A DNA stretch of 64,000 bases from Candidatus Daviesbacteria bacterium. Its GTDB lineage: Bacteria > Patescibacteriota > Microgenomatia > Daviesbacterales > UBA10151. Positions 1,878 through 58,830 of the stretch are shown one piece after another. The position numbers and the translations under genes were made by a program. The notes under the pieces were generated by a model. The model was given only the letters and a program-made list of their open reading frames with translations. It was not told the origin of the DNA and searched no databases. The DNA lies in assembly GCA_016176335.1 (NCBI GenBank), contig JACOXI010000003.1:6920-70919 (forward strand). The letters run 5' to 3'. How positions within the stretch are numbered: position 1 is the first letter of the stretch; every line of letters begins with the position of its first letter.

Positions 1878-3896
1878 GTGAAAAATCTGCTGCTGTTGGT
1901 GGTGACTGTGCTTTTTTTGGGTGCTACTTGGCAGTTTTCTGCCAAAGAAGCTTGTGCTGCTCTGTGGGGAGGAGGATGTAGCCCGCCTGTTGCCTCTGAT
2001 CATCAAACCTGCCCTCTTTCAGGTGTCAGAGACGGAAGATGCGTCAGCTCAGTTGATTTGGTAGCCAACATTAACAGTAGAGGCAGTATGGCTCCCAATA
2101 CCACCATTAGTTTGAGTGTTTGGGATAATGACGGGTCCACTACTACTACTTCTGCCTGCTCTGATGTGTCCTGCCTGATGAGAGCGGACAATGAGTCAAC
2201 TGTTTGGGGAGGGGGAGAAGTAAGTACTTCAATCGCTTTGGATACCATAGGATGCAGTGCAGGAGATTGTGTGGATGCCAACGGCCAAGATTTATTTACG
2301 GTTTCCTTAACTTCCAATGACACAAATTGCACTAATCCCCCCATGCAGACAGTGGATCTATACAGTAGGAACGGACAAACAGTCACCAGAGACTTTACTT
2401 TCATATGTGCAAGGCCCCCGGCTCAAACCTGTACCATTCAAGGCTACAAAGTGATAATGCCGGGCAATCAACCAATTGAACCTGCTGCTTCGCAAACAGT
2501 GACTGTCAGCGGCAAAGGGTCGAGCACTGCTAACCCGTATTCTTTCTCAGACCTCGGTGCAGGAAATTATACTATTTCCACCACCACTCCCACAGGCTAT
2601 ATTCTAAACGGCTATACTCTTTGTACCAATGCCGCCAATTGCCACAACAACACCCCCACTGCCGGAAATTCTGTGACTGCCAACTGCCCTGCAGGCGGAT
2701 ATTTGGATCTCTGGTGGCACTACAGCCCCCAAAACCAGTTTGCAACTGTGGGCGGGCGGGCTACCAACAGCAATACCGGAGCAGGGATAGCGAGCGTGCA
2801 GTTGACTGTTTATAACTCTACTACCCAAACCTACAGATATCCTTTGACCAATTCTAACGGCTATTTCACAGTTACAGACCTTGTCAGGACAGGAGATTAC
2901 TATGCAGTGAGAGCACCCTTAACCACCGGCAGCGGAGGTTTTATTCTTAGTCCGGAGGTAAGTTATGAGAACCAGCGCCAGGGTACCGGGGATTGCGGGA
3001 CAAATTGTAACTTTACCTATAGGCCGGTCTCTGTAGGGGTGGACCTGAAGGCAAATGGATCAGATACTACAGTCAATATTGCCAGCGGAGAAACAGCCAC
3101 ACTGTCTTGGACTACCACCAATGCTTCCTCCTGCACAGCCTCAAGCTCGCCTTCAGACTCTACCTGGAGCGGTACCAAAACAACCGCAAACACCGCCGGA
3201 CAGAGAACCAGCGCTCTGACAGGTCCCAATACCTACACCTACACTCTGCGTTGCAGCAATGCCAGCGGCACTGTCTCCGCCCAAGACTCGGTATCGGTTA
3301 ACGTGGCCGCACCAGTTGCCTGTAACACTTTTTATGTCAGTCCCACTGCCGCAAGCTTAACCATCGGCGGCTCTTCCATGGGAGTTTTTGCCAATGGTCG
3401 TGACGGCACTGTCAGTTGGTCAACTGCCAACTCCTCAATTGCCCGAGTCAGCCCAACCAGCGGCAGCAGCACCCAAATCTCCCCCGGCACCACTTCTGGC
3501 ACCACCACCATCACTGCCACTGACGCAGGCACGGCCAGTTGCAGCGGAGAAACAGGCACTATCTCGGTAACGGTCTCCGCCCCTCTAAGCGGGGCACCTG
3601 TTAACCAACCCATACCGAGTGCTGCTCCAGGCGTAACCACCTATATAATAGAGGGTGTGGTTTTCCTTGACAGCAATAGAAATAGAATCAGAGATGCCAT
3701 AGAGGTCTGTTACCAGGGCCCTGTGCGTATTTCTTTGGGGACTACTTCTATCAATCACCTCCAGGATAGAGATTGCACCAATAAGTACAGGTTTTCCGGG
3801 ATACCTGTAGGGACTTACTCTCTTATTATGGATCCTGTAAATGATTGGGAGTCAACAATGTTGCCGCCGTGGACAGTAATATTTACAGTACCTTAA
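1878..3896 (+). CDS. Secreted Thr/Ser/Gly-rich cell-surface protein with a bacterial Ig-like (Big_2-like) segment
   Basis: The N-terminus is hydrophobic and signal-like. The composition is very Thr/Ser/Asn-rich. A Big_2-like stretch is present ('VSPTSGSSTQISPGTTSGTTTITATDAGTASCSGETGTISVTV'). The exact start is uncertain because the GTG at 1878 sits too close to the 'gaggat' SD-like motif. Confidence 0.5.
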   Translation: MKNLLLLVVTVLFLGATWQFSAKEACAALWGGGCSPPVASDHQTCPLSGVRDGRCVSSVDLVANINSRGSMAPNTTISLSVWDNDGSTTTTSACSDVSCLMRADNESTVWGGGEVSTSIALDTIGCSAGDCVDANGQDLFTVSLTSNDTNCTNPPMQTVDLYSRNGQTVTRDFTFICARPPAQTCTIQGYKVIMPGNQPIEPAASQTVTVSGKGSSTANPYSFSDLGAGNYTISTTTPTGYILNGYTLCTNAANCHNNTPTAGNSVTANCPAGGYLDLWWHYSPQNQFATVGGRATNSNTGAGIASVQLTVYNSTTQTYRYPLTNSNGYFTVTDLVRTGDYYAVRAPLTTGSGGFILSPEVSYENQRQGTGDCGTNCNFTYRPVSVGVDLKANGSDTTVNIASGETATLSWTTTNASSCTASSSPSDSTWSGTKTTANTAGQRTSALTGPNTYTYTLRCSNASGTVSAQDSVSVNVAAPVACNTFYVSPTAASLTIGGSSMGVFANGRDGTVSWSTANSSIARVSPTSGSSTQISPGTTSGTTTITATDAGTASCSGETGTISVTVSAPLSGAPVNQPIPSAAPGVTTYIIEGVVFLDSNRNRIRDAIEVCYQGPVRISLGTTSINHLQDRDCTNKYRFSGIPVGTYSLIMDPVNDWESTMLPPWTVIFTVP

Positions 3897-8921: not shown

Positions 8922-9830
8922 TCACTTTTCCCTTTCCACCATATATTGCACCATTTCCGAAAATAACTTTCTCATTTTGGCATCAGAAGTAATCTTTGGT
9001 ATTACTCTTTTTGCTCTAAAAGCATATTTTAACGCTTTGGCCTCTGCCTTGTCCACTGATTCTACTTCCCCATCCAAAATATCATCTCTAATCTGAAAAG
9101 CAATCCCTGCATTCTCCCCGAATTCTTTTATCCCGCGAAGCCTTGGCGAAGTGGGACCTGCTCCTGCCAGAATTGCTCCGAGTTTAAGAGGGCCTGAAAT
9201 AGTATATCTGGCTGTTTTAAGTTTAGCTGTAAGCTTCGGGTCAGCATGGGCAACATCAAGCATTTGTCCTATGGCAGTATCCAGCATTGTTTGGGAAAAA
9301 AATCTTAAGGCCTGGTTTTTTAATTTATCTTCAAAGTTGCTTTCAGTAATAATTTTTATTGCCAGAAAAAAGCCTGCATCTGCCAAAGTGATGGCCTGCT
9401 CCACTCCTACGCGCTTATACAAGGAGGGCTGACCACGTCTTTTGGGACTTTGATCAATTATGTCGTCATGGGCCAAAATGGCAGCATGAAATATCTCATA
9501 AGCTGCAGCAATTTTAATAATAGAGCTTTCAGCTGTCAGTATCGCTTCGCCCGCCTTTGGCGTGGCTTCGCTGTCAGCTTTCAGACTTTTTTTGTCTTTG
9601 TCTGATTGCTGATAGCTGATAGCTGATGACTCTTTTGCAATCTCATATCCCAACACCACCAAAGTTCCCCTGATTCTCTTGCCTCCCTTGCAGGCTTTGA
9701 TGAATTTGTCAACCAAAGGCAATAGACTTCCGGAAGTCTTGCCAACCCCATTCCTCCATTCTTTTAACAATCTCTTTAACTCTTTATCAATGTGTTCAAC
9801 TGTTTTTTGACTAAATATCTTAAAATCCAT
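8922..9830 (-). CDS. Polyprenyl (geranylgeranyl/farnesyl) diphosphate synthase; carries an in-frame repeat insertion
   Basis: The first Asp-rich motif is 'AHDDIIDQSPKRRG'. A ~95-bp repeat-derived insert encodes 'SYQQSDKDKKSLKADSEATPKAGEA'. Confidence 0.85.
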   Translation of the reverse strand: MDFKIFSQKTVEHIDKELKRLLKEWRNGVGKTSGSLLPLVDKFIKACKGGKRIRGTLVVLGYEIAKESSAISYQQSDKDKKSLKADSEATPKAGEAILTAESSIIKIAAAYEIFHAAILAHDDIIDQSPKRRGQPSLYKRVGVEQAITLADAGFFLAIKIITESNFEDKLKNQALRFFSQTMLDTAIGQMLDVAHADPKLTAKLKTARYTISGPLKLGAILAGAGPTSPRLRGIKEFGENAGIAFQIRDDILDGEVESVDKAEAKALKYAFRAKRVIPKITSDAKMRKLFSEMVQYMVEREK

Positions 9831-12063: not shown

Positions 12064-13233
12064 ATGGTAGAATTGCCTTTCATGAAAAGCAAACTTTCTC
12101 TTCGCGACTTTCCTTCCGCTCAAAAAAGACGCCAGTTTTTAGAAAAAGAGTTAAAACTAGACTTGGACAGTCTTGGTAGTTTCACTTTTTCAGAGGAAGA
12201 AGTCACCGGTAGAAATATAGAAAATCTAATTGGAGCAACACATATTCCTTTGGGTATCGCTGGTCCACTCAAAATCATAAATCATAAATCATCAATCATA
12301 AATCACTTTATACCATTGGCCACTACCGAAGGAGCATTGGTAGCTTCTTTATCCCGCGGCTGCAAGGCCATCACAGAAAGTGGCGGGACAGAAGTTTTGG
12401 TGGAAAATATCGGTATCACCCGCGGCCCGGTATTTAGGACTGAAAGCTTGCAGCATGGACAACAAATCAAAAAGTGGGTGGAGCAAAACTTCACCAAGTT
12501 GGCCAAGGTATCAAAAAGTACTTCTTCCCATCTGAAATTACTGAAAGTAGAACCAGCCATGGTGGGACGTAATTTGTGGCTTCGTTTCTATTTTGATACT
12601 GAAGATGCCATGGGCATGAATATGGCAACAATTGCCACAGATGAGGCAGTGAAACTAATTGAAAAGGAAACAAAAGCTAAGTGTATATCTTTGGCAGGAA
12701 ATTATGACATTGACAAAAAGCCCTCTTGGCTGAATTTCATTTCCGGGCGGGGTAAAAAGGTCTGGGCAGAAGCTGTCTTACCCAAAAAAGTGGTCAGGGA
12801 AGTGCTTAAAACTACGCCGGAAAAGATGGCCGAGGTAGTCTATAGAAAATGCTTGCTGGGTTCAGCAGTCAGCGGTTCATTGGGCTTTAATGCTCATTTT
12901 GCCAATATACTCTCCGCCATCTTTCTGGCCACCGGCCAAGATCCCGCTCATGTGGTGGAAGGCAGTTTGGGAGTGACCACTGCCGAGGTTATGCCCAATG
13001 GCAACTTATATTTCTCCGTCTATCTGCCATCTTTGGTGGTGGGAGTAGTTGGCGGAGGAACACATCTGCCTACCCAAAAAAAAGCCTTAGAAATTATGCA
13101 GGTGAACAATGTGCTAGAATATACTCGGGCTGTGGGAGCAGCTGTTATTTCTGGTGAAATTTCATTAATTGCCTCTCTTTCGGAAGGAAGTTTGGCAAAA
13201 GCACACCGGAAACTGGGTAGAAAAGGAAAATAG
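12064..13233 (+). CDS. hmgA: Hydroxymethylglutaryl-CoA reductase (class I, archaeal/eukaryotic type)
   Basis: 'ENLIGATHIPLGIAGPLKI...TTEGALVASLSRGCKAI' matches. The track ORF starts at 11992 inside the upstream gene, and an in-frame ATG at 12064 is the more likely start. It contains an in-frame 'atcataa' tandem repeat that encodes 'IINHKSSIINH'. Confidence 0.85.
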   Translation: MVELPFMKSKLSLRDFPSAQKRRQFLEKELKLDLDSLGSFTFSEEEVTGRNIENLIGATHIPLGIAGPLKIINHKSSIINHFIPLATTEGALVASLSRGCKAITESGGTEVLVENIGITRGPVFRTESLQHGQQIKKWVEQNFTKLAKVSKSTSSHLKLLKVEPAMVGRNLWLRFYFDTEDAMGMNMATIATDEAVKLIEKETKAKCISLAGNYDIDKKPSWLNFISGRGKKVWAEAVLPKKVVREVLKTTPEKMAEVVYRKCLLGSAVSGSLGFNAHFANILSAIFLATGQDPAHVVEGSLGVTTAEVMPNGNLYFSVYLPSLVVGVVGGGTHLPTQKKALEIMQVNNVLEYTRAVGAAVISGEISLIASLSEGSLAKAHRKLGRKGK

Positions 13234-13383
13234 GAGCGAAGTCACAAGTAATCAAAAAATGTAGTGCAGTTGAGCGCACCACTTATTCAATGTTTCGAAA
13301 CCAGAATCTGGCGCGAAACAAACACCAAGTGAGCGATCCGGTCGCGCGAACGGTTTTTTGTACTGTGACGAGCGACAAACATT
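13234..13383 (+). repeat. ~145-bp dispersed repeat element, copy 1 (fills the hmgA / HMG-CoA synthase intergenic region)
   Basis: It is near-identical to 26611..26759 and 57806..57960. It shares 'agcgaagtca...caaaaaatgt.gtgcagttgagc...ggcgcgaaac...gcgagcgacctggtcgcgcgagcggttttttg...tgacgagc'. Confidence 0.8.
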
Positions 13384-26610: not shown

Positions 26611-26759
26611 AAGTAAAGATAGCGAAGTCACAAGCAGTCAAAAAATGTTGTGCAGTTGAGCATACCACTTTATTCATGACCGATTCCATTCCATGGCGCG
26701 AAACGAACACAAGCGAGCGACCTGGTCGCGCGAGCGCTTTTTTGCGCTGTGACGAGCTA
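26611..26759 (+). repeat. ~145-bp dispersed repeat element, copy 2 (fills the PRTase/IMPase intergenic region)
   Basis: It aligns end-to-end with copies at 13234..13383 and 57806..57960. Its 'tgacgagctag' end supplies the PRTase stop codon. Confidence 0.8.
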
Positions 26760-27398
26760 GCTTGTCAATAATTGTACCACCTCTTCATCTGATACAGGCT
26801 CAAATTTGTGATAAAACTGGCCAACTGCCTGGAAATACTCAGGTGTTTCCAAAACCACTACCTCCCCGAACTCTCCTAACTCCCTGATGATTTTCTCTAC
26901 TGGTTCTTTACTTGCCACAGGTATGGCCAAGATTATTTTTTTAGCTTCATGCCTTTTTAAATACCTGACAGCAGAAAGTGTTGTTGCACCTGTGGCAATC
27001 CCATCATCAACAAGGATTACAGTTTTACCTCCGACATTAAGAGGTTTTTTTTCTCGCCTATATAAATCCTCTCTCCTTGTTATCTCTTCTACCTCATTTT
27101 TCACTGTTTCCTTCAAATCATAAATCGTTGATCCTAAATCATCAATCAAATTCTGATCCCACACCACCTCACCATCCGGATCTACTGCTCCCAAAGCCAA
27201 TTCAGGCTGGGTCAGGGCACCTATTTTTCTGGTCACAATAATATCCAAGGGTAAGTTTAATGATTCTGCTACTGCGGATGCCACCACCACTCCTCCTCTG
27301 GGAATACCAAGTACCAGGACATTATCTTTACCTTTGTAGTGTTTAAGATGTTTTGCGAGCAATTTCCCGGCTGATTGTCTATCTTTAAAAATCTTCAT
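26757..27398 (-). CDS. Phosphoribosyltransferase (type I PRTase fold)
   Basis: 'VILVDDGIATGATTLSAV' is the PRPP-binding motif. Confidence 0.7.
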   Translation of the reverse strand: MKIFKDRQSAGKLLAKHLKHYKGKDNVLVLGIPRGGVVVASAVAESLNLPLDIIVTRKIGALTQPELALGAVDPDGEVVWDQNLIDDLGSTIYDLKETVKNEVEEITRREDLYRREKKPLNVGGKTVILVDDGIATGATTLSAVRYLKRHEAKKIILAIPVASKEPVEKIIRELGEFGEVVVLETPEYFQAVGQFYHKFEPVSDEEVVQLLTS

Positions 27399-33403: not shown

Positions 33404-33485
33404 GATTATAGCTATCAGTCTTCAGCTATCAGCTTTCAGACTGTACCTAAAAATGTCTGACGACTGACGACTGAAAGCCGACGAC
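33404..33485 (+). repeat. Palindromic 'CAGCTATCAG...GTCTGACGACTGACGACTGA' element (copy A)
   Basis: It matches copies at 42343..42422 and 56706..56785. Confidence 0.7.
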
Positions 33486-33521
33486 TACTTCAATTTTCGC
33501 ATATTTCCCGCAAAATTCCAA

Positions 33522-39804: not shown

Positions 39805-41072
39805 ACTTTCTCTGTCTTCTTCCCTACCTGACTTGCCAGCTTCATTTGTAAGGAATAGATTTCAATAAACCCGGCACTTGTATTAGTGTTAAAGTCGTAT
39901 CCTTCCGCGTTGTTAAACGAAGCAAAAGCTAGCGCATACGGTGATTCAATAGCCACCACAGTTGCTTGACCCTTAAATAGTTTTACTGTTACCTCTCCTG
40001 TAACTTTCTCATTAACCTGATCGTTAAAAGCATTTATAGCCTCCATGCTTGGATCAAACCATAAAGCTCCATAACACAAGTAACCCCACTTAATATCCAT
40101 TTGCTCTTTTAACTCATTAAGCTGTCTTGTTGACACATACTTTTCCAAATTTTTATGAGCCTCCACAATCACATGGGCTGCCGGATGTTCATAAACACCC
40201 CTGTTTTTAAGTCCAACTAACCTGTCTTCCAAAATATGGAAAGTACCTACTCCATGTTTGCCAACAATTTGATTTAGCTTCTTAATTAGCTTGGCTAAAC
40301 TTAACTTTTCCCCATTAATGGAAATTGGTAAGCCTTCCTTAAATCCCAATTTAAGCAGTTCAGCCTTATCAGGAGCGTTTTCTGGTAATGTATAGGTAGT
40401 TAAGAACTTCTCCACAGGAACAATTAATGAGGGGTCGGTAATCTCTCCACCTTCCCAGGTAATTCCCCACATATTGTCATCATCAGAATAGGGCACATCT
40501 ACTGAAGCAGGAATTGGTATCCCGTGCATCTCCGCATATTTAATCTCTTCATTTCTATCCATGGCCCATTCCCGAACTGGAGCCAAAATTTTCATTTTTG
40601 GATCATGAGTTAAGATATACCCATCCAACCTGACCTGATCGTTTCCTTTACCTGTACACCCATGAGCTATGGCATCACAACCATACTTTTTAGCTAATTT
40701 CACAGCATTCTTACCCAAAACTGCCCTTCCCATTGGAGTTGAGAGATGATAATCACCTTGATATGAAGCATTAGCTTTAATACCTTTAGCAATATACTCC
40801 TTTGCAAATTCCTCCTCAAGATCTAAAACAATTGCCTCTTTTGCACCAAATTTCAGGGCTTTTTGTTTTATAACTCTCAAATCATCATGTTGTTGACCCA
40901 AATCTGCAGTTAAAGTGACCACCTGACATTTGTACTGATCTTGAATCCACTTCAGCATCACCGATGTATCAAGCCCTCCGGAATAAAGGAGCAATACCTT
41001 TTTAATTTCTCCTATCTTCCCTTCGTAAGATGCTACTTTTATATAATCAGTCGTCTTTTTCATTAGTATCAC
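39801..41072 (-). CDS. argG: Argininosuccinate synthase
   Basis: 'LLYSGGLDTSV' is the PP-loop. The length fits. Confidence 0.9.
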   Translation of the reverse strand: MILMKKTTDYIKVASYEGKIGEIKKVLLLYSGGLDTSVMLKWIQDQYKCQVVTLTADLGQQHDDLRVIKQKALKFGAKEAIVLDLEEEFAKEYIAKGIKANASYQGDYHLSTPMGRAVLGKNAVKLAKKYGCDAIAHGCTGKGNDQVRLDGYILTHDPKMKILAPVREWAMDRNEEIKYAEMHGIPIPASVDVPYSDDDNMWGITWEGGEITDPSLIVPVEKFLTTYTLPENAPDKAELLKLGFKEGLPISINGEKLSLAKLIKKLNQIVGKHGVGTFHILEDRLVGLKNRGVYEHPAAHVIVEAHKNLEKYVSTRQLNELKEQMDIKWGYLCYGALWFDPSMEAINAFNDQVNEKVTGEVTVKLFKGQATVVAIESPYALAFASFNNAEGYDFNTNTSAGFIEIYSLQMKLASQVGKKTEKV

Positions 41073-42288
41073 CTCCTTTCAAATATTTTTTACCCACCTG
41101 TTTGTATGCATCTCTAAAAGTTTCCCCTTTTAGAACCTGTTTCAAAACTTCCTCTGTGGCAAAAAGATCTTCTGTCATAGCAGCTTCTAACTTCTCTTTA
41201 TTAGGAGTTAAATTTTCTAGCAAAATCTTGGTTACCATAAGAGTTTCTAGGGTAATTTCTAAACTTTCTATCAAAGGTTTTTTGCTATCTTGCAAATCCC
41301 TGTTATAACCGGAGATTAAATTGCTCGAAAGGCTAACCATCTGAATATAATTTCCTAAAACAAGATGTACCTTTGATCTTAAAAGTTCTGCTAGATCAAC
41401 GTTTTTCTTTTGCGGCATGATGCTGCTGCCTGTAGTAATTTTACCTGTGGCTTTAAAAAAGCTAAATTCCGAAGTAGTAAAAAGCAGCACATCTGAGGCG
41501 AATTTATTGATTGTTTGCAAAACAGAAATCAAAGCGGCTATTATACTAGCCTCAATTTTTCCTCTGGAGTTTTGGCAATACAACGGGTTTTGTTGGACCC
41601 TGGTAAATCCTAAGAGCTTAGCTGAATACTCCCTATCTAATTTAATTGGCACACCATACCCTGCTCCTGAACCTAAAGGAGATTGGTTATTTAATTTATA
41701 AACGATTTTCAAAAGTGTCAGGTCGTTCTCTAAAGAATCAATAAAACTCCCTGCCCATAATCCAATCGATGAAGGCATGGCTTTTTGCATATGGGTATAA
41801 CCGGCCATTTGTATATAGCCATATTCTTTAGAAAAGCCTTTGAAACTTTTTGTTAAATTGGTAAGCTCGAGTTCAATACTTTCTAGTGCGTTCTTGCTAT
41901 ACAGCCGGATAGCAGTTAATACTTGATCGTTTCTTGACCTACCGGTGTGGATTTTTTTACCTATGTCACCATATTTTTCCGTTATATAGTTTTCAATTTT
42001 GGTATGCATATCTTCGTCTCCTATTTTCAGATCAAACTCACCCTTTTTATAAAGGTTTAATATTTCCTCAAAACCCTTCAGCAACTTCTTTAGTTCCGGC
42101 TCAGATATGATACCAATCAAAAATAATTTATTAAGCGTCTTCACATGAGCTATAGAAGCTAAGATATCATACTCAATTAGTTTTTGATCCATTAAAAGAT
42201 CCCCCTTTGTTTCAAAGGCTTCCACCACTGGGTCTAATTTTTTATTATTTTTCTGCCAAAGTTTTTTCATATTTCCTTTCCGGGCCAT
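41047..42288 (-). CDS. argH: Argininosuccinate lyase
   Basis: It belongs to the fumarate-lyase family. The 'GSSIMPQKKN' signature is present. Confidence 0.9.
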   Translation of the reverse strand: MARKGNMKKLWQKNNKKLDPVVEAFETKGDLLMDQKLIEYDILASIAHVKTLNKLFLIGIISEPELKKLLKGFEEILNLYKKGEFDLKIGDEDMHTKIENYITEKYGDIGKKIHTGRSRNDQVLTAIRLYSKNALESIELELTNLTKSFKGFSKEYGYIQMAGYTHMQKAMPSSIGLWAGSFIDSLENDLTLLKIVYKLNNQSPLGSGAGYGVPIKLDREYSAKLLGFTRVQQNPLYCQNSRGKIEASIIAALISVLQTINKFASDVLLFTTSEFSFFKATGKITTGSSIMPQKKNVDLAELLRSKVHLVLGNYIQMVSLSSNLISGYNRDLQDSKKPLIESLEITLETLMVTKILLENLTPNKEKLEAAMTEDLFATEEVLKQVLKGETFRDAYKQVGKKYLKGGDTNEKDD

Positions 42289-42346
42289 TAAAAAAGCCCT
42301 TGCAAGTTCCCAAAGATTAACTTTAGAAACTTACAAGGGCCTTATT
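42289..42346 (-). terminator. Terminator/attenuator-like hairpin immediately upstream of argH RBS (minus strand)
   Basis: On the minus strand 'aaggcccuuguaaguu' pairs with 'aacuugcaagggcuu' and is followed by 'uuuuuuaa'. It lies between the leader region and the argH SD. Confidence 0.45.
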
Positions 42347-42422
42347 TCAGCTTTCAGACTTCAGCTATCAGCTTTCAGACTTTTGTAATTGTCTGATGAC
42401 TGACGCCTGACGACTGATGACT
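42343..42422 (+). repeat. Palindromic CAGCTATCAG/GACTGA element (copy B) in the argH leader
   Basis: The sequence is 'cagctttcagacttcagctatcagctttcagactt...gtctgatgactgacgcctgacgactgatgact'. Confidence 0.7.
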
Positions 42423-42457
42423 AATCAAGACGGTGCCACCTTGCTTAAATTTTGCTA

Positions 42458-42643
42458 CAAAAAATCCTCCATTTCGGAGGATCACTGTAGAAAATTTATC
42501 TCTTACAGCGCTCCGTTGCCGACACGCTTGTTGAATTTTACAGTTCAACTTCTGTCATACTCTATCCTAAGACTTTGCTTGGGACTGACGTATGCTGCTT
42601 GCCCGCTGCGGCGGACTCAAACGCATTTAAAATATTAAATTGT
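42458..42643 (-). ncRNA. Candidate small RNA / argH leader RNA with consensus sigma70 promoter and intrinsic terminator
   Basis: On the minus strand the promoter is TTGACA(42678-42673)-N17-TATAAT(42655-42650). A GC-rich, structured ~190 nt follows. It ends in the hairpin 'uccuccgaaauggagga' plus U6 (42481-42458). The 73-aa + strand ORF here has no coding support. Confidence 0.4.
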
Positions 42644-42649
42644 AGATAC

Positions 42650-42678
42650 ATTATATCTAAAGAAAACTTATTTGTCAA
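42650..42678 (-). promoter_or_regulatory. Consensus sigma70-type promoter (TTGACA-17-TATAAT) driving the candidate sRNA/arg leader
   Basis: Both hexamers match exactly with 17-bp spacing. I read this directly from the minus strand. Confidence 0.5.
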
Positions 42679-42706
42679 ATCAATTAATGTTTGTTAAAGT
42701 GTAATT

Positions 42707-42967
42707 ATGGCGAAACAAAATCAGACCTCTTTCCGAAAAGAGCTAATCCAGCAACTTATCACCCTCTCCACCTCTGCCTTTGGTTTGGCAGCTGCTTTGG
42801 CCTGGAATGATACTATCCAGCAAACAGTCAAGGAATTTATCGAGCCAAGAATTCCAGGCTCAGGGATTTTCTCCAGATTTATATATGCCGGTATAGTCAC
42901 AATTTTAGGTGTAATTATCACTATCCAGCTGTCCCGTCTGGCCTCCCGTTGGGGACTAAAGAGGTAA
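42707..42967 (+). CDS. Small membrane protein (two predicted TM helices)
   Basis: It is 86 aa with hydrophobic segments 'LITLSTSAFGLAAALAW' and 'FIYAGIVTILGVIITI'. Confidence 0.35.
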   Translation: MAKQNQTSFRKELIQQLITLSTSAFGLAAALAWNDTIQQTVKEFIEPRIPGSGIFSRFIYAGIVTILGVIITIQLSRLASRWGLKR

Positions 42968-56532: not shown

Positions 56533-58830
56533 TCATAACACTAATAACTTCATCTCTCCCCAATTGGGGCCTACTTTTAGATCCACCACTACTGGTACAG
56601 ATAATTTTAGGGCATTTTCCATTTTATCTTTGACCATTTGGGCAATTTCTTTAACGCTCTTGGGGTCACACTCAAACAACAATTCATCATGAACCTGGAG
56701 GATGAGTCGGCAGCTATCAGATCGTTCGCTGCGCTCACTGTCAGCTTTCAGACTGTCTGACGACTGATGACTGATGACTGATAACTCCTTATCAATTTCC
56801 ACCATGGCCTTTTTGATCATATCTGCTGCTGTTCCTTGAACCGGATGATTGATGGCTGCTCTCTCACCAGCTGCTTTGATGGCGTGATTTGAGGCTGTAA
56901 GTTCAGGGATATATCTTTTCCTGCCCCAAAGAGTTTCAACATACCCCCTTTCATATCCAAAGGCTAAAGTCTTTTGCATCCACTGGGAAACTTTGGGGAA
57001 TTGTGCAAAATATTCCGCAATATATGTTCGCGCCACCTCATATTCCACCCCTAACTGACGGGACAAGGCATGGGGGCCCTGACCATATAACGTTGCAAAG
57101 TTCATGGTTTTACCTACATTTCTTTGCTGTTTTGTAATTTTATCAATTGGCATTTTGAAAATTTTACTGGCAGTTGCTACATGAATGTCTAATCCTTCTC
57201 TGAAGGACTTTCTTAATCCCGGATCATCTGCCAAATGAGCCATAATCCTAAGCTCGATTTGTGAATAATCAGCTGCCAAAAGTACCTTGCCTTTGGGAGC
57301 AATGAAGGCGCGTCTTATTTCTCCACCCTCCTCACCTTTAATTGGGATATTTTGCATGTTTGGGTTTTGAGAAGACAGCCTGCCTGTGGCAGCTCCTTCC
57401 ACATTAAAAGTGGAGTGAATCCTGCCATCTAATCCTACAGATTTAGGCAAGGCATCTATGTAGGTTGATACCAGTTTGAAAAGCTGGCGATACTCTAAAA
57501 GTAATGGCACTACAGGATGAGCTGCTACCAACTCATGAAGGGTGGCCTCATCTGTTGATCTACCAGTTTTGGTCTTTCTCACCACTGGTAATTTAAGTTC
57601 GTCAAACAGAATCTGCGACAGTTGCTTTGGGCTGTTCGGATTAAACTCATGTCCTATTTTTGAGTAAATTTCTTTTTCTAATTTAATTAATCTACCTTTT
57701 AAGGCTTTCCCAAGTCTCTCTAAAAACCTTAAATCTATTAGTACACCAGTTTTGGACATCCTTTCTAAAACTGGCTGTACAGCTAAATCCAAATCCGTGG
57801 TATTTATGGAGTTAGCGAAGTCAGAGGTAGCCAAAAAATGTGGCGCAGTTGAGCGCACATCCTTATCCATGCTTGAATTACCTACTTGGCGCGAAACAAG
57901 TCCCAAGCGAGCGACCTGGTCGCGCGAGCGGTTTTTTGCATCCTGACGAGCTACTCCCACACCTGGAATCCTACCAATCAAACTTTTAAACTCCAATTCT
58001 TCAAACAATTTAACTACTTTTTCTTTATCAAAATCATGAACCTCACACTTCTTCAAATCTAACTTAATTGGGGCTTTGCCATCTAAGGTGGCTAGTTTTT
58101 TACTCATTACAGCATCTTCTGCACCTTCTGCCAACAGCTTTTGCATTCTTTGCGGTAAAGTTTTTAAATTCTTGGGACGGTAAATTTCTTCAATCGTGCC
58201 AAACTGGTGTATTAATTTTGTCGCAGATACATCCCCTATTCCAGAAACTCCCGGGATATTATCCGATGCATCTCCTGCCAGCGCCTTATAATCAACCAAA
58301 AGTTTGGGTGCAAATCCATATCTTGCCACAAACTCTTCCTCCCCATACAGCCCCACATCCGCAAGGGTTTTTTTAGGCATAAAAACTTTCACTTTTCCAT
58401 TAATCAGCTGCATGATATCCCGATCACCTGTCACAATAATAATTTCTAATTTCAAATTTTTAATTTTTAATGCTTGGCTTGCCAGTGTGGCAATCAGATC
58501 ATCTGCCTCATAACCTGATAAGCTAAATTGCGGCATGTTAAATGCCCTGATGACCTCATGCACTCTGTGATATTGATTACCCAATGCCTGATCCAGCTCA
58601 CGTCTTGTGGCTTTATATTGAGTATAAGCTTGATGTCTAAATGTCGGCCCCCTTTCATCCCAGGCAACGGCCAGAAATGTAGGTTTAAGCTCATTTAAAA
58701 CCTTCAGCATCATTGAGGAAAATCCATATACAGCATTGACCAGTTCTCCTTGGGAAGTAGTAAAAGGAGGAGTAGCATGATAAGCCCGATGCAGCAAAGC
58801 ATTACCATCAACTAAAACCAGTCGTTTCAT
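56533..58830 (-). CDS. polA: DNA polymerase I (5'-3' exonuclease + polymerase domains; no evident 3'-5' exonuclease domain); carries two in-frame repeat inserts
   Basis: The N-terminal 5' nuclease is 'MKRLVLVDGNALLHRAYHA'. The Pol A motifs 'DYSQIELRI' and 'QVHDELLFE' are present. Inserts lie at 57806-57960 (the 145-bp element) and 56706-56785. Confidence 0.9.
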   Translation of the reverse strand: MKRLVLVDGNALLHRAYHATPPFTTSQGELVNAVYGFSSMMLKVLNELKPTFLAVAWDERGPTFRHQAYTQYKATRRELDQALGNQYHRVHEVIRAFNMPQFSLSGYEADDLIATLASQALKIKNLKLEIIIVTGDRDIMQLINGKVKVFMPKKTLADVGLYGEEEFVARYGFAPKLLVDYKALAGDASDNIPGVSGIGDVSATKLIHQFGTIEEIYRPKNLKTLPQRMQKLLAEGAEDAVMSKKLATLDGKAPIKLDLKKCEVHDFDKEKVVKLFEELEFKSLIGRIPGVGVARQDAKNRSRDQVARLGLVSRQVGNSSMDKDVRSTAPHFLATSDFANSINTTDLDLAVQPVLERMSKTGVLIDLRFLERLGKALKGRLIKLEKEIYSKIGHEFNPNSPKQLSQILFDELKLPVVRKTKTGRSTDEATLHELVAAHPVVPLLLEYRQLFKLVSTYIDALPKSVGLDGRIHSTFNVEGAATGRLSSQNPNMQNIPIKGEEGGEIRRAFIAPKGKVLLAADYSQIELRIMAHLADDPGLRKSFREGLDIHVATASKIFKMPIDKITKQQRNVGKTMNFATLYGQGPHALSRQLGVEYEVARTYIAEYFAQFPKVSQWMQKTLAFGYERGYVETLWGRKRYIPELTASNHAIKAAGERAAINHPVQGTAADMIKKAMVEIDKELSVISHQSSDSLKADSERSERSDSCRLILQVHDELLFECDPKSVKEIAQMVKDKMENALKLSVPVVVDLKVGPNWGEMKLLVL
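56706..56785 (+). repeat. Palindromic CAGCTATCAG/GACTGA element (copy C) in-frame inside polA
   Basis: The sequence is 'cagctatcag...ctgtcagctttcagactgtctgacgactgatgactgatgactga'. It encodes 'SVISHQSSDSLKADSERSERSDS'. Confidence 0.7.
57806..57960 (+). repeat. ~145-bp dispersed repeat element, copy 3, in-frame inside polA (antisense to the gene)
   Basis: It aligns over its full length with the 13234..13383 and 26611..26759 copies. It is translated as 'ARQDAKNRSRDQVARLGLVSRQVGNSSMDKDVRSTAPHFLATSDFANSINT'. Confidence 0.8.

Follow-up and report, generated by a model that had tools for sequence, protein, structure and literature searches.

What kind of transcript is made between a promoter and the first gene of an arginine operon in the 64,000-nucleotide stretch of Candidatus Daviesbacteria contig JACOXI010000003.1 analysed here (the window)? 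The first-pass annotation offered two answers for the region upstream of argH on the minus strand: an independent small RNA (sRNA) of ~190 nucleotides (nt), or a riboswitch or attenuation leader of the arg operon that a repeat element has split. Our analysis bears out the leader, in the form of a T-box. The region from the promoter (42678-42650) to the end of the terminator at 42290 is one unit of ~350 nt and, with a probability that we put at roughly 0.9, represents a single cis-acting T-box riboswitch that makes transcription of the arginine operon dependent on uncharged transfer RNA for arginine (tRNA-Arg). The short-Stem-I architecture and the Arg specifier described below were foreseen in neither of the two answers.

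In the proposed mechanism, the 5' ~120 nt of the leader would fold into a decoding module, composed of a kink-turn-like (K-turn-like) base, a short Stem I that presents CGC followed by a purine, Stem II, and a IIA/B pseudoknot, and this module would bind the anticodon of tRNA-Arg. The free 3' NCCA of the uncharged tRNA would then pair with the UGGC of a 7-nt bulge and stabilize the antiterminator (helices A1 and A2), so that polymerase reads through into argH. A charged tRNA could not pair; in its presence the terminator, with a stem of 20-23 base pairs (bp), would form, and transcription would stop at 42290. The leader is best described as a short-Stem-I ("Class III"-like) T-box that acts via a transcription terminator. 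Its elements, and the gene that follows, are these:

42650-42678, minus strand: sigma-70-type promoter TTGACA-N17-TATAAT, matching the consensus at 12 of 12 positions.
42617-42628, minus strand: nearly invariant 5' flank AAAUGCGUUUGA, which together with AAGCAG (42600-42595) makes up a K-turn-like GA motif at the base of Stem I.
42601-42616, minus strand: short Stem I, GUCCGC/GCGGGC, with apical loop CGCA; 6 of 6 pairs are kept in relatives, 5 of them changing on both sides.
42556-42594, minus strand: Stem II, with lower helix CAUAC/GUAUG (which covaries), internal loop GUCA/AGA, upper helix and loop.
42530-42555, minus strand: Stem IIA, ACAG/CUGU, with the F-box-like CUGUAAAA; the IIB pseudoknot joins its loop GUUGA to UCAAC at 42534-42530 (covariation).
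42508-42527, minus strand: hairpin H4, GCG-UGU-CG-GCAA-CG-GAG-CGC, whose outer stem covaries.
42486-42497, minus strand: 5' strand AAAUUUUCUACA of the helix assigned to Stem III, preceded by purine-rich AAGAG and paired with 42459-42447.
42458-42483, minus strand: GC hairpin GAUCCUCC-GAAAU-GGAGGAU followed by U6, the "first terminator" of the first-pass annotation, nested in the apical part of the same helix (terminator scan).
42447-42459, minus strand: 3' strand UGUAGCAAAAUUU of that helix, then AAG (cognate pairing test).
42426-42446, minus strand: T-box sequence, consisting of AAG, the A1 5' strand CAAGG (42443-42439), the bulge UGGCACC (42438-42432) and the A2 5' strand GUCUUG (42431-42426), from motif and minimum-energy fold.
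42345-42425, minus strand: 81-nt heptamer-palindrome repeat inserted in the antiterminator apical loop, one of four copies in the window.
42334-42344, minus strand: A2 3' strand UAAGGC and A1 3' strand CCUUG, both common to the 5' strand of the terminator.
42290-42343, minus strand: intrinsic terminator with a 20-23 bp stem, a 5-nt loop and U6 (terminator scan and fold; covarying in relatives).
41047-42279, minus strand: argH with its Shine-Dalgarno sequence, the first gene of the operon (TIGR00838, E 2e-90).

The first line of evidence for this reading is that the leader is conserved as a whole. Related leaders were found at 37 loci (nhmmer E values from 2e-40 to 1e-17), of which 30 are genome loci, collected with a profile built from 24 leaders, and seven are metagenome loci. 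The pattern used for the metagenomes, H4 plus the T-box sequence, was too loose: it returned 120 loci, 113 of which were chance matches. The first-pass annotation had staked its proposal on conservation upstream of argH in related genomes, and such conservation was indeed found, with E values down to 2e-40. Moreover, the conserved block is unbroken in relatives, running from the promoter (TTGACA/TATAxT at the equivalent relative position) through the "first terminator" and the T-box motif to a second terminator that abuts argH, and at least 42 of 80 argH loci have the motif GGUGGYACC directly upstream of the gene. In the window itself, the promoter would place the start of transcription at ~42643. 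The unusual GC content and structure reported for the ~190 nt after the promoter were confirmed: GC is 0.49 at 42475-42624, compared with ~0.32-0.43 in most nearby intervals (up to 0.51 in upstream coding sequence), and the 191-nt stretch folds with z = -4.2 relative to shuffles.

The second line of evidence is a complete T-box switch in the 3' part of the leader. What had been called a "T-box-like" motif is a genuine T-box sequence (AAGCAAGGUGGCACCG at 42446-42431), and the second terminator before argH was likewise recovered. The antiterminator consists of helix A1 (CAAGG/CCUUG), the 7-nt bulge UGGCACC, and helix A2 (GUCUUG/UAAGGC). Helix A1, between the 5 nt that precede UGGYACC and 5 nt farther downstream (CAAGG/CCUUG or AAGGG/CCCUU), is present in essentially every leader; helix A2, which lies between the strands of A1, covaries across 36 leaders; and essentially all members have the bulge UGG(C/U)ACC as well as a terminator that uses the same 3' strands. 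For an RNA that ends at 42334, the minimum-energy fold of 42446-42334 is the antiterminator, with A1, an unpaired bulge and A2, at -38.4 kcal/mol; once the RNA is extended to 42290, the 23-bp terminator fold is obtained at -68.3 kcal/mol. The two predicted structures, antiterminator and long terminator, are mutually exclusive. This is the antiterminator/terminator switch of T-boxes as described in PMC7583486 and PMC7778990. The terminator ends 10 nt before the Shine-Dalgarno sequence, which remains unpaired in the window as well as in the relatives.

The third line of evidence is the covariation of the decoding module. RNAalifold, applied to 13 leaders, yielded Stem I, Stem II, Stem IIA and H4. 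With this structure, pairing is kept in 96% of cells, and both sides vary in 17 of the 26 pairs; none of 500 shuffles equalled this result, and slid controls had 27-41% of cells paired. The lower helix of Stem II is paired throughout (100%), with variation on both sides in four of its five pairs; in many relatives it leads into a purine-rich internal loop, GAGAAA/AUUA, which is S-turn-like and compatible with U replacing the bulged G. Across the family, Stem IIA ends in CYGUAAAA, which is F-box-like, and the pairing partner of its loop is a stretch of 3-6 linker nt a few bases downstream. Since the varying register of this pseudoknot ruled out column counting, it was tested by permuting cognate and non-cognate partners: in 35 leaders, cognate loop and linker form on average 3.23 contiguous Watson-Crick pairs versus 2.40 for non-cognate ones, and none of 2000 permutations equalled the cognate value. 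The flanks of Stem I, GC-GUUU-GA...(G/A)A-GC, resemble the Rfam T-box consensus gC-gaU-GA...GA-Gc, and the flank pair N4-N33 is a standard one in 14 of 20 regex-parsed leaders (~14 of 17 when three judged to be misparsed are left out), which is suggestive of a K-turn at the base of Stem I.

H4 contains an inner U.G / G.A / U.G block that is invariant, capped by a variable tip; nothing equivalent to H4 appears in the accounts of T-boxes in PMC7583486 and PMC10482949. A helix between GCGUUUG of the 5' flank and CAAGCGU before H4 was also considered and rejected, because the outer stem of H4 covaries alone (for example, in loci L032 and L052) while the 5' flank is unchanged.

The codon that the decoding module would present is CGC (Arg, 42610-42608), followed by the purine A at 42607. 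Within the Stem I loop, the GC of this triplet is invariant and the first C nearly so. The window loop would be the hexaloop C-CGC-A-G if the top pair opens; loops of 7-10 nt occur in relatives, and Stem I has 6 bp and a loop of 4-6 nt. A loop triplet CGC followed by A or G precedes arg genes (argH, argF, or a GNAT gene plus argH) in ~30 loci. Four of the seven metagenome members also carry CGC, before arg genes or small genes without a known family; the arg genes include argH (L141) and an ornithine carbamoyltransferase gene (L137). For the window alone, the match of CGC to Arg is a correlation only; CGC also fits the "C rule", which concerns the third position of the specifier (PMC7583486).

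Loci with other triplets are more informative. At one locus (L132), the 7-nt loop CAUCCUA contains CCU followed by A and stands before the glutamate 5-kinase gene proB (TIGR01027, E 4e-23). At two metagenomic loci, L152 (2172-2452) and L124 (~905-1835), the loop contains UGG followed by a purine (A/G), and a tRNA-Trp(CCA) gene lies downstream. In L152 this gene begins 12 nt past the terminator and is followed by an Asp/Glu-type racemase gene; in L124 it comes after a 106-residue open reading frame (ORF) and before the gene of a 386-residue protein without a family match. The base N of the bulge can be compared with the tRNA discriminator in these two cases, and both agree: UGGC with G73 in L152, and UGGU with A73 in L124. 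Thus, the loop triplet at the one Pro locus and the two Trp loci, and the bulge base at the latter two, follow T-box rules, and this is the strongest evidence that the window CGC is an Arg specifier. From the same rules we infer the isoacceptor of tRNA-Arg that the leader would recognize.

The same observations bear on the notion that the leader is a small-molecule riboswitch, sensing for example arginine, or a leader-peptide attenuator. An arginine operon, a long structured leader and a terminator directly before the first gene are what such a device would show. However, nothing is missing from the T-box bulge and antiterminator, the scaffold also stands before proB and tRNA-Trp genes with matching triplets, and the bulge N fits the discriminator. 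Moreover, there is no conserved leader ORF (a minus-strand ORF of 57 residues has no family match), and no Rfam riboswitch family matches. In our opinion, this explanation is hardly tenable, and the T-box remains the preferred one.

It should be noted that a T-box upstream of the gene for its own ligand, as in L152 and L124, is unusual. The AGA of the window Stem II internal loop was also considered as a specifier and rejected, since most relatives have AUUA or AUAA there.

Canonical T-boxes also occur upstream of argH. In the related locus L021, the leader (584-789) scores 97.8 bits against an Rfam threshold of 93, with a specifier read as AGA followed by G; therefore, T-box control of argH exists in recognized form in the clade. 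Canonical long-Stem-I T-boxes are present upstream of argH in L037 and L066 as well, with the specifier AGA by eye. Two T-box designs (long Stem I with AGA, short Stem I with CGC), along with two tRNA-Arg isoacceptors, have apparently been swapped at orthologous argH genes.

The evidence that bears on an independent sRNA lies in the middle of the leader. According to that proposal, a trans-acting RNA of ~185 nt would end at 42458, and the downstream T-box and terminator would be separate or decayed elements. The hairpin and U6 on which it relies were found by the terminator scan at 42483-42458; they have the features of an intrinsic terminator and are conserved in ~27-30 leaders. In addition, the search for a competing anti-terminator upstream of the hairpin gave no cognate signal across leaders, so that some transcripts may end at this point. 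However, the 13 nt after the U-run pair, with strong covariation, with the strand 5' of the hairpin. In 28 leaders, the mean energy of this duplex is -10.6 kcal/mol for cognate and -5.3 kcal/mol for non-cognate strands; none of 5000 permutations equalled the cognate value, and in 24 of the 28 leaders the cognate strand is among the three best. When, as a control, the strand after the U-run was paired with the 5' untranslated start instead, no cognate signal emerged, and 3490 of 5000 permutations were as good. Furthermore, the T-box bulge and antiterminator depend on the decoding module 5' of them, the conserved unit continues in relatives through the second terminator, four leaders (L007, L020, L030 and L003) lack the hairpin and U-run and keep all else, and the element always lies immediately upstream of amino-acid genes that match the loop triplet. 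An independent sRNA is thus very unlikely.

In the T-box that we favor, the duplex around the hairpin, judged by its position, is Stem III, and the GC hairpin with its U-run is the apical extension of this stem. Stem III has purines on its flanks and AA(G) between it and A1, which recalls the RRRNG-Stem III-AA motif given in PMC7778990, a likeness only. In the leaders that have it (parsed in 27), the nested hairpin has a stem of 5-9 bp with 4-5 GC pairs, a loop of mostly 4 nt and a run of U4-U8; Stem III is plain in the four leaders named above.

Several observations weigh against a T-box in the window. The Rfam T-box model (RF00230) has no match in the window even at E<=10, and the Rfam covariance search at gathering thresholds, covering the whole window and 35 related loci, identified only the canonical leader of L021 as a T-box and none of the window type. 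The relative L004 reaches only 18.3 bits against the RF00230 threshold of 93, and none of 16 scanned window-type loci passes. The Stem I loop of the window subtype is formally a CGCA tetraloop with a closing pair that covaries (C-G in 8 and U-A in 5); therefore, at least one pair must open to present the codon. One relative, L020, carries AGC in place of CGC, and the Stem II internal loop of the window, GUCA/AGA, differs from the S-turn-like loop of most relatives. There is no tRNA gene in the 64-kb window and no tRNA-Arg gene in the window or the related loci whose anticodon could be set against CGC, or whose discriminator against the G73 expected for UGGC. Finally, a conserved hairpin with U6 inside the leader looks like a constitutive terminator, which the standard mechanism does not explain, and the 81-nt insertion might impair switching in this genome.

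With regard to the scores, the Class I features are absent from the window: Stem I is a 6-bp hairpin without the platform motifs. The decoding features of Class III (short Stem I, Stem II and pseudoknot) are present, and its translational platform is not. The sub-threshold Rfam score reflects the shortcomings of a model derived from long-Stem-I members; the defining biology is not at fault. At E<=10, a search of 42100-42900 returned hairpin-like chance matches to microRNA families and a 19-bit match to His_leader, which were dismissed.

As to the internal hairpin, our best guess is that the U-run is kept as a pause or a leaky early terminator. A refinement of the T-box reading along these lines has two checkpoints: the Stem III hairpin and U-run would pause polymerase, or terminate it leakily, before the T-box sequence is made, giving a platform-less Stem I time to capture the tRNA. 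The U4-U8 tract is kept beside stems of quite different sequence in 27 leaders, and a structural extension would not need a U-run; moreover, a review (PMC7583486) makes the case that transcriptional T-boxes need fast tRNA capture, normally via a long Stem I platform. The proposal is purely inferential, however; several members manage without the hairpin, and part of the U-run coincides with the Stem III 3' strand, so that its role may be simply structural. We regard the two checkpoints as a tentative addition.

The 81-nt insertion raises the question of whether the T-box is dead in this genome, the operon being constitutively terminated or otherwise read through. The repeat, which the first-pass annotation had noticed and which we place at 42425-42345, is unique to the window; when the antiterminator loops were compared across leaders, no relative was found to carry it. 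It adds ~80 nt between the strands of A2 and A1, while the corresponding loops are mostly 0-16 nt in relatives, with longer, unrelated sequences in L141 (26 nt) and L015 (46 nt). Contrary to the view that it has split the leader, the repeat occupies the antiterminator apical loop: in the predicted fold, it forms a hairpin of its own atop A2, and A1, the bulge and A2 are intact. The other conserved positions of the leader and the downstream arg genes are intact as well, the latter with family matches. Insertions atop helix A2 are known in working T-boxes (PMC7583486), for example stem Sa of staphylococcal glyS (PMC9177973). With stem Sa the window shares a lineage-specific extra stem, compatible with function, within the antiterminator/terminator domain; unlike it, the insert is a copy of a dispersed palindromic repeat, is present in this genome's leader only, and is not a conserved functional stem. 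Inactivation is therefore unlikely, and the predicted folds suggest that the switch is probably still functional despite the insert.

The relation of this leader to described T-boxes deserves comment. Class III T-boxes, such as those of ileS in Nocardia farcinica and Mycobacterium tuberculosis, have a short Stem I without an elbow platform, carry the specifier in an apical loop of five or six nucleotides, and depend on Stem II and a pseudoknot (PMC10482949, PMC7583486). They "mostly regulate translation initiation" (PMC10482949), by sequestration of the Shine-Dalgarno sequence, whereas transcriptional T-boxes "generally require" a long Stem I (PMC7583486). Common to the window and Class III are a short Stem I without a double-T-loop platform, a codon followed by a purine in a small loop, Stem II, Stem III, the UGGN bulge, a IIA/B pseudoknot pairing 3-5 linker nt, the F-box-like CYGUAA, and a tendency to insertions in Stem III and atop A2. 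Unlike the Class III examples, which sequester the Shine-Dalgarno sequence, the window leader leaves it free and has an intrinsic terminator (20-23 bp and U6). It also differs in host, Microgenomates of the candidate phyla radiation (CPR) rather than an actinobacterium; in the targets of its family, arg and pro genes and tRNA-Trp rather than ileS; and in the extra invariant H4 and the terminator-like hairpin and U-run within Stem III.

With Class I (RF00230), represented by the Bacillus subtilis tyrS type and by the argH leader of L021, the window has in common the T-box, the alternative of A1/bulge/A2 and terminator, transcription attenuation, the K-turn-like GA motif, Stem II, the pseudoknot, and a specifier that matches the regulated amino-acid gene. 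It lacks the long Stem I, the internal specifier loop, the AG bulge and the distal loop platform, and it uses CGC instead of the AGA of the canonical argH leaders.

T-boxes are a textbook case of one RNA sensing another. In the accepted view, those that control termination need a long Stem I with a tRNA-elbow platform, and the short versions are mostly translational and found in Actinobacteria (PMC7583486, PMC10482949). The present family couples a short Stem I to an intrinsic terminator at no fewer than 37 loci of CPR-like genomes and metagenomes, for three amino acids or more. A short-Stem-I T-box coupled to a terminator is unusual, though allowed by the literature; new are H4, the nested hairpin and U-run, the targets (arg and pro biosynthesis and tRNA-Trp) and the host. 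No literature on T-boxes in CPR or Patescibacteria was found, which, given incomplete coverage, is weak evidence of novelty. It is possible, although we would not press the point, that the family constitutes a distinct Microgenomates class, with a minimal decoding module coupled to termination, in which H4 (through a tRNA or tertiary contact) and the Stem III hairpin and U-tract (through a pause or partial termination for tRNA capture) compensate for the missing elbow platform, and which also controls tRNA-Trp genes, and so its own ligand.

TBDB sought short-Stem-I T-boxes only in Actinobacteria and among the matches of the Rfam T-box model (PMC7778990). Since the standard model misses the present family and the scope of TBDB is narrow, T-boxes in candidate phyla are probably under-counted, and amino-acid regulation in reduced CPR genomes probably appears emptier than it is. 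The family also provides a natural test of a minimal T-box for co-transcriptional tRNA sensing, and of the tolerance of the antiterminator loop to an 81-nt insertion.

Downstream of the leader, the gene order is argH-argG-argF-pyrB-like-carA-carB, extending to 33522 on the minus strand; argF encodes an ornithine carbamoyltransferase and the pyrB-like gene a second carbamoyltransferase (Pfam matches for the operon genes other than argH). The intergenic region is flanked by argH and by a divergent DUF5654 gene (42707-42967, plus strand). The argH Shine-Dalgarno sequence is AAAGGA at ~42279-42274, and GGAAAGGAAAU precedes the ATG at 42270. Because homologues start with MKKLWQK, the true start of argH is probably this ATG (MKKLWQK) rather than the ATG at 42288 chosen by the mechanical ORF call (MARKGNMKK...), which sits immediately 3' of the terminator U-run. 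The plus-strand ORF at 42417-42638, already judged not credible in the first-pass annotation, has no family match and overlies the conserved structured RNA. The argH loci nearest to that of the window among GTDB genomes share 60-71% identity with it, and those with informative names belong to Candidatus Daviesbacteria, Levybacteria and other Microgenomates; the host is a Microgenomates (CPR) bacterium.

In several relatives (L001, L007, L010 and L023), a small gene separates the Arg T-box from argH. Its product is a GNAT acetyltransferase in L007 and, with a weak match, in L023, and may be an N-acetylglutamate synthase. The other small genes encode proteins of 67-180 residues without a family match (L001 and L010; also after the leader in L137, L177 and L180).

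Some related leaders carry a recurrent inserted hairpin module of their own, ..CCCACUUCGCU...AGCUACG.GGG.., which lies 5' of Stem I in L026 (~3594-3640) and L048 (~99-145), and within the IIA/B linker in L124 (~1010-1040).

The 81-nt insert of the window belongs to a repeat family, GTCAGCTTTCAGAC...GTCTGAYGACTGA, with copies at 9568-9635, 33405-33490, 42345-42425 and 56735-56790. Two copies are in frame within protein genes on the minus strand: one in a polyprenyl synthetase gene (ORF 8922-9830), where residues 66-88 read KESSAISYQQSDKDKKSLKADSE, and one in the DNA polymerase I gene (ORF 56533-58830), where residues 681-699 read KELSVISHQSSDSLKADSE. A third copy lies in the spacer between carB and a Fic gene, and the fourth is that of the T-box antiterminator loop. 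Rickettsia palindromic elements, likewise short palindromic repeats, occur as insertions in intergenic DNA, in loops of structured RNAs, and in frame within protein genes. By description, the heptamer repeats resemble these selfish elements in their insertion sites; sequence family and host differ.

A further element of ~145 nt is present in three copies in the window (13231-13376, 26617-26760 and 57810-57954), which are 60-82% identical. It forms a single long hairpin with the ends AGCGAAGTCAC...GTGACGAGC and an internal GC hairpin followed by T6. An Rfam search gave no match, even with the limit set at E<=10; the element may be mobile or may represent a structured RNA. Two copies are intergenic, and the third is read in frame as residues 293-341 of DNA polymerase I, in the linker of that protein.

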